A DNA stretch of 16,724 nt from a virus. Its lineage: Duplodnaviria; Heunggongvirae; Uroviricota; Caudoviricetes. The stretch lies in the IMG/VR virus record IMGVR_UViG_2671180460_000005; one strand, written 5' to 3'. Positions 15,883-16,724 of this stretch are shown one piece after another; the stretch's first letter is position 1; the number at the start of each line of letters is the position of its first letter. Position numbers and translations under genes: made by a program. The notes beneath the pieces were generated by a model that did not search any database, had not been told where the DNA came from, and was given only the letters and a program-made list of their open reading frames with translations.

Positions 15883-15903
15883 CCGGCGAAAGCTGGCTTT
15901 TTT
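15883..15903 (+). terminator. Terminator-like hairpin (GAAA tetraloop) with T-tract after tfa
   Basis: GCCGGC (15883-15888), loop GAAA, GCTGGC (15893-15898) gives a 6-bp stem with one G-U pair, followed by TTTTT (15899-15903). Confidence 0.5.
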
Positions 15904-15915
15904 GGGGAAAAATTT

Positions 15916-16724
15916 ATGTCCACACTCATCTCAGGGATTCTTGCTGATGGCGCTGGCCGTCCTATGTCCGGTCATCATATTCTTCTGAAAGCCCGACAGA
16001 ATACATCCGCAGTGGTCATGAGAACGGTGGCTACAGTGGTGACAGGTCCGGCAGGAGAATATGCTTTTGAAGCTCAGACCGGAAAATATGACGTTTATCT
16101 TCGGTCGTGTATTGAAAGGGAATACTGCGTCGGTGATATTTCGGTTTACCACGACTCAAAGCCCGGCACGCTGAACGATTTTCTGACTGCCCTGGATGAA
16201 GGCGACCTCAAACCCGACGTGGTGAAGCGATTTGAGGAAATGGTGGCGCAGGCGCAGCAGGGTGCCGAAACCGCAACAGAAAGCGAACGACAGGCAGGGC
16301 AACATGCGGATGCTGCCGCCCGGGCAAAAGAAGAGGTAAAAAAACTGGCGGAAGGTGTTCAGCAGAACGCCGACGCTGTTGCGGAGGGTAAACAACAGGC
16401 CGAAAATCTGGCCTCGCAGGTTGAGAATGCCGCCGCAGAGGTAAAAAAGGACGCTGAAGCTGCTAAACAGGCCGCATCCGGTGCAGAGCAGGCCAGAGCA
16501 GATATTGATACTGCGTTATCTGCGACACTGAAAACGGCGAATCGCCTGTCAGAGCTGGCTGATGAAGGTGAAGAGGCTCAGCAGGAATCCCGTGATAATC
16601 TTGGACTGAAAAGCGCAGCCACAATGACGCCACAGAGCGACATTCGTGACCGGACTGAAGGCCGTCTGGCGACACCTGGCGCATTTGGTTTTGGGCATAT
16701 TTTTCTGCCCGCAGAGCGTATCCG
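15916..16724 (+). CDS. Second side-tail-fibre-like protein, 3' truncated by window end; N-terminal domain paralogous to the Stf N-terminus
   Basis: Not in the supplied ORF track because it has no stop within the window. ATG at 15916 with GGGG 8 nt upstream, and the frame is open for 269 codons to the window end. Translation MSTLISGILADGAGRPMSGHHILLKARQNTSAVVMRTV...[56 protein letters not shown]... is colinear with the first roughly 115 aa of Stf at about 35-45 percent identity by eye, then continues into an Ala/Glu/Gln-rich coiled-coil-like segment. Confidence 0.8.
   Translation, partial: MSTLISGILADGAGRPMSGHHILLKARQNTSAVVMRTVATVVTGPAGEYAFEAQTGKYDVYLRSCIEREYCVGDISVYHDSKPGTLNDFLTALDEGDLKPDVVKRFEEMVAQAQQGAETATESERQAGQHADAAARAKEEVKKLAEGVQQNADAVAEGKQQAENLASQVENAAAEVKKDAEAAKQAASGAEQARADIDTALSATLKTANRLSELADEGEEAQQESRDNLGLKSAATMTPQSDIRDRTEGRLATPGAFGFGHIFLPAERI

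Follow-up and report, generated by a model that had tools for sequence, protein, structure and literature searches.

We analysed a stretch of 16,724 nucleotides (hereafter, the window) from the IMG/VR virus record IMGVR_UViG_2671180460_000005, a member of the Caudoviricetes, and focused on ORF2, the open reading frame (ORF) that directly follows the side tail fibre gene stf and its assembly gene tfa. ORF2 is a second fibre gene, and its N-terminal collar domain is of the Stf type. It is probably the first gene of a two-gene add-on module, consisting of a fibre of about 474 amino acids and a DUF4376 chaperone of about 187 amino acids, located between tfa and the attachment site of a lambda-like E. 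coli prophage. Our preferred reading is that the module supplies the phage with a second, working fibre, held on the virion by a collar domain that forms rings, and we favour this reading with somewhat more confidence than doubt. Two such genes in one phage are a rare but recurring arrangement.

The ORF2 frame starts with an ATG at position 15916 and, as an earlier note on this DNA had stated, stays open to the end of the window, with 269 codons free of stops through the last base (15916..16724, on the plus strand like the other features located here). These are the first 269 of an expected 474 codons, the window end cutting the gene. The gap between the tfa stop (15875) and the ATG holds a hairpin with a GC-rich stem of 6 base pairs, a GAAA loop and a tail of six T, which a scan reported as an intrinsic-terminator-like element (GCCGGC-GAAA-GCTGGC followed by T6, 15882..15903, -10.3 kcal/mol), and a Shine-Dalgarno-like motif, GGGGAA, read from the sequence 8 nucleotides 5' of the ATG (15904..15909).

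Residues 1-133 of ORF2 match PF08400 (phage_tail_N, Prophage-tail-fibre-N) in Pfam with an E-value of 1.6e-52 (177.5 bits against a cut-off of 26.6), and Stf matches the same family (E 5.9e-74). In a BLASTP alignment with the upstream Stf, 57 of 140 positions are identical (41%, one gap, E 3e-29), only at the N-terminus, which agrees with the colinearity and the 35-45% identity claimed earlier. The N-domain also matches the solved collar domain of Ur-lambda (E 2.5e-17), has its fold, a six-strand beta sheet plus a helix, and is of the same fold as the N-terminal immunoglobulin-like anchoring domain of the neck fibres XM1 gp40 and A-1(L) gp82. The collar (virion-anchoring) beta-sandwich domain proper covers residues 1-94 (15916..16197), and its structural neighbours include the XM1 collar spike gp40 (7KJK_A3, score 11.2), the A-1(L) neck fibre (8KEG_a, 8.4) and the Bxb1 tail collar fibre (9D93_La, 8.1). 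In residues 100-235 (16213..16620), Ala makes up 25%, Glu 14% and Gln 10%, and Pro occurs once; the AlphaFold model of a 78%-identical homologue forms long helices over its own residues 100-193, so that the Ala/Glu/Gln-rich, coiled-coil-like continuation noticed earlier is borne out as a helical shaft. The low predicted local distance difference test (pLDDT) scores of these helices are expected for one chain removed from its trimer. By comparison with relatives, residues 236-269 (16621..16724) are the start of the distal (receptor-binding) part, and the distal domain of the relatives (residues about 240-474) gave no Pfam match and no significant solved structural neighbour.

The complete gene is found in relatives of the window. 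In L017 (GCA_016672865.1), which is 99.95% identical to window positions 5294-16724, ORF2 has 474 codons and differs by one amino acid across the 269 residues in common. It is complete in ten relatives altogether, with 474 amino acids in L001, L002 and L013-L019 and 577 in L020, and the early stop or frameshift downstream by which the earlier note would have recognized a remnant was not seen. The L017 fibre belongs to phrog_2636 ('tail fiber', E 2e-158). Starting 8 nucleotides past its stop, L017 has a DUF4376 gene of 187 codons, with host genes next, smpB first. The partner protein matches phrog_1141 (E 2.2e-83) and has a C-terminal DUF4376 domain (PF14301; E 2.8e-17, 63.6 bits against a cut-off of 25); the second tfa looked for downstream, in its lambda-type form, was not present. 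Within the DUF4376 family, a role as fibre chaperone has been tested for one member, the gp27 protein of Alteromonas phage V22, which is needed for the functional fibre gp26 (PMC7289586). The order J, lom, stf, tfa, fibre 2 (474 amino acids), DUF4376 (187 amino acids) and ssrA also occurs in the complete genomes of E. coli C5, which is about 97% identical to the window, and E. coli 2013C-3264, with ssrA lying some 200 nucleotides past the DUF4376 stop in both. The C5 prophage (NZ_CP010122, about 1,693,400-1,741,400) has an apparently full lambda-like set of integrase, repressor, replication, Q antiterminator, lysis, terminase and head genes. Between its Q antiterminator and lysis genes (L101 16599-17702, outside the window) it also carries an ompC porin gene; because OmpC is the receptor of lambda-type Stf, this phage-borne ompC variant could affect superinfection.

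Some relatives depart from this layout. Fibre 2 of L020 (10622-12355, in the prophage adjoining the hya operon) has the same N-domain with a different distal end, the window match ending at 16704; its distal part matches phrog_33169 and no DUF4376 gene follows it. The lambda-like locus L083 (8916-12000) has J, lom, an Stf of 801 amino acids, an unknown ORF of 346 amino acids, an ORF2-type fibre of 475 amino acids and, in place of DUF4376, a Tfa-like gene of 201 amino acids. The contig of L021 (IMGVR_UViG_2703718850_000006), which is of the window's type, ends about 360 nucleotides past the ORF2 N-domain match, and the window likewise breaks off partway through ORF2; genes of this type may be where prophage-boundary calls or assemblies tend to stop.

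When the N-domain of ORF2 was used as a query, 286 deposited phage genomes matched, and among these only Rac-SA53 tail3, phiP27 L56 and one 'Actinobacillus' phage exceeded 60% identity (all about 79%), while lambda-type Stf proteins were 41-46% identical to it. In Actinobacillus phage vB_Apl-pPE4 (PP818812.1 43400-45960), the fibre shares 79% and the DUF4376 protein 69% identity with the E. coli cassette, which is unexpectedly close for a Pasteurellaceae host. Both phiP27 and Rac-SA53 have the order baseplate fibre, tfa, PF08400 fibre, DUF4376-type gene and attR. In complete E. coli genomes, the fibre and DUF4376 pair ends P2-like prophages, straight after gpD, and phiP27-like prophages, after a fibre and tfa, and in those inspected it always adjoins the host junction. 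A survey of the best 80 IMG/VR loci found the ORF2-type N-domain in 66, with myovirus markers (sheath, gpD or baseplate J) in the available DNA of 45 of these 66; five (L021, L064, L072, L083 and L085) had a lambda-like context that also included a lambda-type Stf. A neighbour-joining tree of the first 100 residues separated two deep clades, one of lambda-type 'first' Stf domains and one of the ORF2 type. Within the latter, the lambda-context group of the window formed its own subclade, sister to the P2-context group, and the N-domain subclades largely track the phage type (lambda-context, P2-like, phiP27-like). Since the ORF2 N-domain stands in a separate clade together with P2-like and phiP27-like copies, ORF2 was acquired from the myovirus-associated family and is not a duplicate of stf; an acquisition from another phage was one of the two origins that the earlier note had offered, the other being an old paralogue. 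A recent tandem duplication was rejected on the separate deep clades and on identities to stf of 49% in nucleotides and 41% in amino acids.

The tfa-hairpin-ORF2 junction aligns without a break to the window in all ten relatives, which adjoin three host-gene sets: ssrA/smpB, zinT/yodB and the hya operon. The first set represents the ssrA attachment site. The other two are probably the serU and serT tRNA sites, given the tRNA-Ser annotated beside yodB in SerU-LTIIb and the E. coli map, on which we take zinT/yodB and the hya operon to mark these sites. The range of sites bears on the idea that the cassette was never the lambda-like phage's own and was left over from a myovirus prophage deleted from the same attachment site. 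Remnants made up of only the fibre and DUF4376 do exist beside a tRNA-Ser, as in SerU-LTIIb, and P2-like prophages end with the cassette at potB and other host loci. However, the same continuous junction is found at ssrA/smpB, zinT/yodB and the hya operon, and the cassette lies inside the prophage, between tfa and an intact ssrA. Because the junction recurs at several sites, we rejected the view that an older prophage left it behind at a single site, and we regard such an origin as extremely improbable. The gene annotated 'stf2' in SerU-LTIIb (KU052038) was considered as a precedent for a two-fibre phage and discarded, as it is the DUF4376 partner of the single fibre in a degraded prophage.

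The cassette is not present in all relatives of this tail module. Of the 15 complete E. coli genomes with the best matches, nine match the window no further than 15856 or 15857, and in the two of these nine that were inspected tfa is the last phage gene, followed by potB; since tfa ends the phage in these potB-adjacent relatives, the cassette is dispensable for that tail type. The hairpin is conserved in C5, 2013C-3264 and RM13745, is absent from the potB-adjacent relatives and from myovirus contexts, and marks the border between the stf-tfa module and the added cassette.

The earlier note had called a phage with two distinct side-fibre genes unusual. This holds in part, as only two of the 286 deposited phage records carrying a PF08400-type domain have two copies, and one of these, an 89-kb record, also bears a feature named for a second phage. 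On the other hand, the arrangement is less singular than supposed, as it recurs beside the three host-gene sets and in further lambda-context variants in IMG/VR. Among 5426 complete E. coli genomes, the junction is intact in two and decayed in three. It also recurs in draft assemblies: the window's exact Tfa is encoded on at least 24 public contigs, and in all eight inspected a PF08400 gene is next and the cassette is carried. RefSeq labels both genes 'prophage tail fiber N-terminal domain-containing protein', and the open-access literature searched held no description of a lambda-like phage with two collar-domain fibres or of this arrangement. The gene falls into known families, while an architecture with two collar fibres appears not to have been described previously.

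Based on these observations, we propose a theoretical scheme for the working of the module. As there is no promoter-like site before ORF2 and the closest complete prophage, that of C5, encodes Q, the module would probably be transcribed late by Q-antiterminated read-through of the hairpin after tfa. Trimers of ORF2 would be anchored on the virion by a ring (collar) of N-domains, the shaft would form a helical coiled coil, the DUF4376 protein would fold the trimeric distal tip by analogy with V22 gp27, and the distal domain would bind a receptor. The ring anchoring is modelled on two solved systems, the Ur-lambda Stf collar and the XM1 gp40 neck ring. In Ur-lambda, the N-domains of 12 Stf chains encircle the gpV-gpM junction, and four trimeric fibres are attached through them (PMC12617516); in XM1 six gp40 trimers, i.e., eighteen gp40 N-domains, bind the neck (PMC10457771). 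The ORF2 ring might share, or compete for, the 12-subunit Stf collar at the tube/tip (gpV-gpM) junction; alternatively, ORF2 might form a separate collar elsewhere, as the homologous domains do at the neck of the myophages XM1 and A-1(L). Either way, the particle would carry two fibre specificities and adsorb to more hosts, and a dual receptor specificity is plausible. More tentatively, and with a good deal more doubt than for the functional second fibre itself, ORF2 may form a second separate collar (e.g., at the head-tail junction) or mixed 12-subunit collars with Stf, so that the two fibres would not simply compete for a single site; the siphovirus would then be able to recognize two kinds of receptor, with the collar domain acting as a portable adaptor for lambda-like, P2-like and phiP27-like virions.

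The collar site itself was compared with that of Ur-lambda. The window Stf N-domain and the Ur-lambda collar-domain chain 9E7M_Ta differ over 93 aligned positions by a sole mismatch, V35M. In the window gpM, two of the three reported Stf-collar contact residues are changed relative to lambda gpM (K2 to E and R80 to T) and W6 is kept (contacts from PMC12617516). Given the near-identical Stf N-domain, this suggests that the collar-tail contact may tolerate change, a hint too thin to use.

Signs of a working fibre come from the pattern of sequence change. Seven full-length lambda-context copies are all intact at 474 codons, with ratios of nonsynonymous to synonymous substitution rates (dN/dS) of 0.09-0.24 at synonymous divergences (dS) of up to 0.15, which indicates that lambda-context ORF2 is under purifying selection. 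In the N-domain, dS between a lambda-context copy and a P2-like copy is 0.38, and 1.5 for a phiP27-like copy, while in the distal 234 codons dS is only about 0.05 between lambda-context and the two myovirus copies compared. At the DNA level, the window begins to match the myovirus copies at 15946 or 16120, inside or just past the N-domain. The contrast in dS, together with the swapped distal end of L020, is what would be expected of an anchoring N-domain that remains tied to its virion and a receptor-binding part that moves between phages. Tip exchange with a context-specific anchor kept is reportedly the classic pattern of working tail fibres, fibre genes being recombination hot spots, as Haggard-Ljungquist et al. 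are said to have described in 1992.

Several observations weigh against the assembly of ORF2 into this virion. The ORF2 N-domain is 88-93% identical to the P2-like prophage copies of the IMG/VR survey and only 41% to the Stf of the same phage, and may thus be unsuited to a lambda-type tail. At the loop through which the Ur-lambda collar meets gpV and gpM, Stf has VEYGQ where ORF2 has AQTGK, and AQTGK (AQTGR in one copy) is found in ORF2-type domains from every phage context. A terminator-like hairpin sits 5' of the gene. The scan found no promoter upstream of ORF2; a lone weak 9/12 match inside the ORF is at background frequency. Expression of ORF2 and its incorporation into particles are deduced from sequence, and the distal half of the gene and the chaperone gene, which lie outside the window, from relatives. 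Decayed cassettes are present in RM13745, RM13752, TK3046, L064 and L085, and in the 2013C-3264 prophage the gene for the tape measure is frameshifted. Finally, part of the signal of purifying selection could have been imported by recombination with myovirus copies. As to the decayed loci themselves, that of RM13745 (L004 5321-8060; the same in RM13752 and TK3046) has a 30-amino-acid fibre 2 fragment, an IS630 remnant, a YadA-like adhesin gene and a DUF4376 fragment. A DUF4376 homologue (orf-191) also occurs in the records of P-Eib phages that bear their eib genes.

Much of this would be explained if the cassette were a passenger, co-acquired from a myovirus-type prophage near the attachment/integration end and carried, unassembled, by a lambda-type virion to which its collar is not adapted, as a neutral and slowly decaying relic. 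The myovirus-associated N-domain, the terminator and the decayed copies would all follow, as would the constant position of the cassette beside the attachment site, where modules swap, and the fact that near-identical tail modules at potB do well without it. A neutral relic, however, is hard to reconcile with the intact copies and their low dN/dS, with a lambda-context subclade of the N-domain that is maintained despite distal exchange and includes the 577-amino-acid L020 fibre, or with a junction that persists beside three host-gene sets. We consider the passenger explanation unlikely, though it deserves to be taken seriously.

A different fate was raised in the earlier note, i.e., that one copy is a silent reservoir for recombinational host-range switching. 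The unexpressed copy would then supply variants by inversion or by homologous recombination with stf, in the manner of Mu Gin, P1 Cin and e14 Pin. Two fibre genes do stand in tandem on the same strand here, and fibre genes are known recombination hot spots. Yet in none of the ten relatives does the stretch from tfa to the host genes contain an annotated or called invertase, no inverted repeats lie between the genes, and the sole inverted repeat in 12900-16724 is a 17-nucleotide pair inside stf. An invertase or inversion switch was therefore rejected. The 5' ends of stf and ORF2 are 49% identical with a longest identical run of 9 nucleotides, and because of this lack of DNA homology gene conversion between them is unsupported. 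ORF2 also has its own start codon, a Shine-Dalgarno-like motif and a dedicated chaperone gene. The reservoir proposal thus did not hold up, and we give it hardly any credence.

The near identity of the N-domain to that of P2-like prophages, which are common in E. coli, could also mean that the fibre is made for another particle, being supplied in trans to a co-resident myovirus prophage, a tailocin or a satellite that uses this type of collar. Myovirus prophages with this fibre, however, encode their own copy, the locus shows nothing suggesting separate regulation, and the literature searched offers no precedent. Such a role seems very doubtful, and a functional second fibre on the phage's own virion is the reading that we maintain.

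The proposed second fibre can be set beside several known systems. Compared with Ur-lambda Stf/Tfa (PDB 9E7M/9MGH; PMC12617516), the ORF2 N-domain is only 41% identical and falls into the other deep clade, and the shaft is rich in Ala/Glu/Gln where that of Stf is rich in Ala/Ser/Thr. The distal domain of the ORF2 type is unrelated and lacks the Phage_fiber_2 and Collar domains, and the chaperone is DUF4376 instead of Caudo_TAP. In lambda, the extra gene after stf-tfa is absent. The closest parallels are phiP27 L56/L57 and Rac-SA53 tail3/tail4, with the same fibre family (79% in the N-domain; phrog_2636) and the same partner (73%; phrog_1141/DUF4376), where the second fibre set likewise follows a first fibre and tfa as the last genes before the attachment site/attR. 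In these phages, however, the first fibre is a baseplate fibre without PF08400 on a contractile tail, while here the first fibre has a collar domain and the tail is of the lambda type. The neck and collar fibres XM1 gp40 (7KJK), A-1(L) gp82 (8KEG) and Bxb1 gp4 (9D93) share 14-23% identity with ORF2 and are otherwise unrelated proteins; their location on the particle differs among these phages. V22 gp26/gp27 (PMC7289586, PMC10579305) shows the same order of a fibre gene and then a DUF4376 gene that encodes about 190 amino acids. The V22 fibre, on the other hand, lacks PF08400, its phage and host are unrelated, and only the C-terminal DUF4376 domain is common to both.

Two alternative fibre specificities at one locus are also found in Mu S/S'-U/U' with Gin, in P1 with Cin and in e14 with Pin. 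While those loci have a single constant N-terminal part and exchange its C-termini through site-specific inversion, the window has two complete genes on the same strand. DT57C-type phages have two different fibre proteins that result in a dual host range. As far as T5-like phages (T5 p132/pb1; DT57C LtfC with LtfA/LtfB) are described where PMC12617516 cites them, a 12-subunit collar near the tail tip bears the side fibres, as proposed here. In those phages, however, a protein of its own makes up the collar and both fibres branch off at a shared attachment, whereas each fibre of the window has its own collar domain.

The rest of the window is filled by a lambda-type tail module, with the tube protein V, G/T, tape measure, M, L, K, I, J, lom, stf and tfa. 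The tape measure gene lies at 3405-6434, the gpM gene at 6431-6763, J at 8825-12223 and lom at 12285-12905. The primary lambda-type side tail fibre gene, stf (12970..15294, 774 amino acids), has the PF08400 N-domain (12970-13251), a Phage_fiber_2 repeat and a Collar domain. The mechanical ORF call for stf begins with a GTG at 12964, and homology to lambda Stf (MAVKISG...) places the real start at the ATG at 12970. The lambda-type tail fibre assembly gene, tfa (PF02413), covers 15294..15875 and encodes 193 amino acids.

In lambda-like phages, and also in engineered lambda delivery particles, gpJ and Stf determine the host range. A lambda-type tail found in nature with a second collar-anchored fibre would show that this architecture accepts an add-on receptor-binding module. 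With the 2025 Ur-lambda structure, it has become testable how two different collar-domain fibres would share a tail that has one 12-subunit collar site. If the cassette were a passenger only, it would represent ordinary mosaicism at a prophage end. Overall, these results suggest that fibre cassettes, comprising shaft, tip and chaperone, move between contractile- and non-contractile-tailed prophages while the anchor domain tracks the virion type, a movement that would be useful for the prediction of prophage host range and for fibre design.

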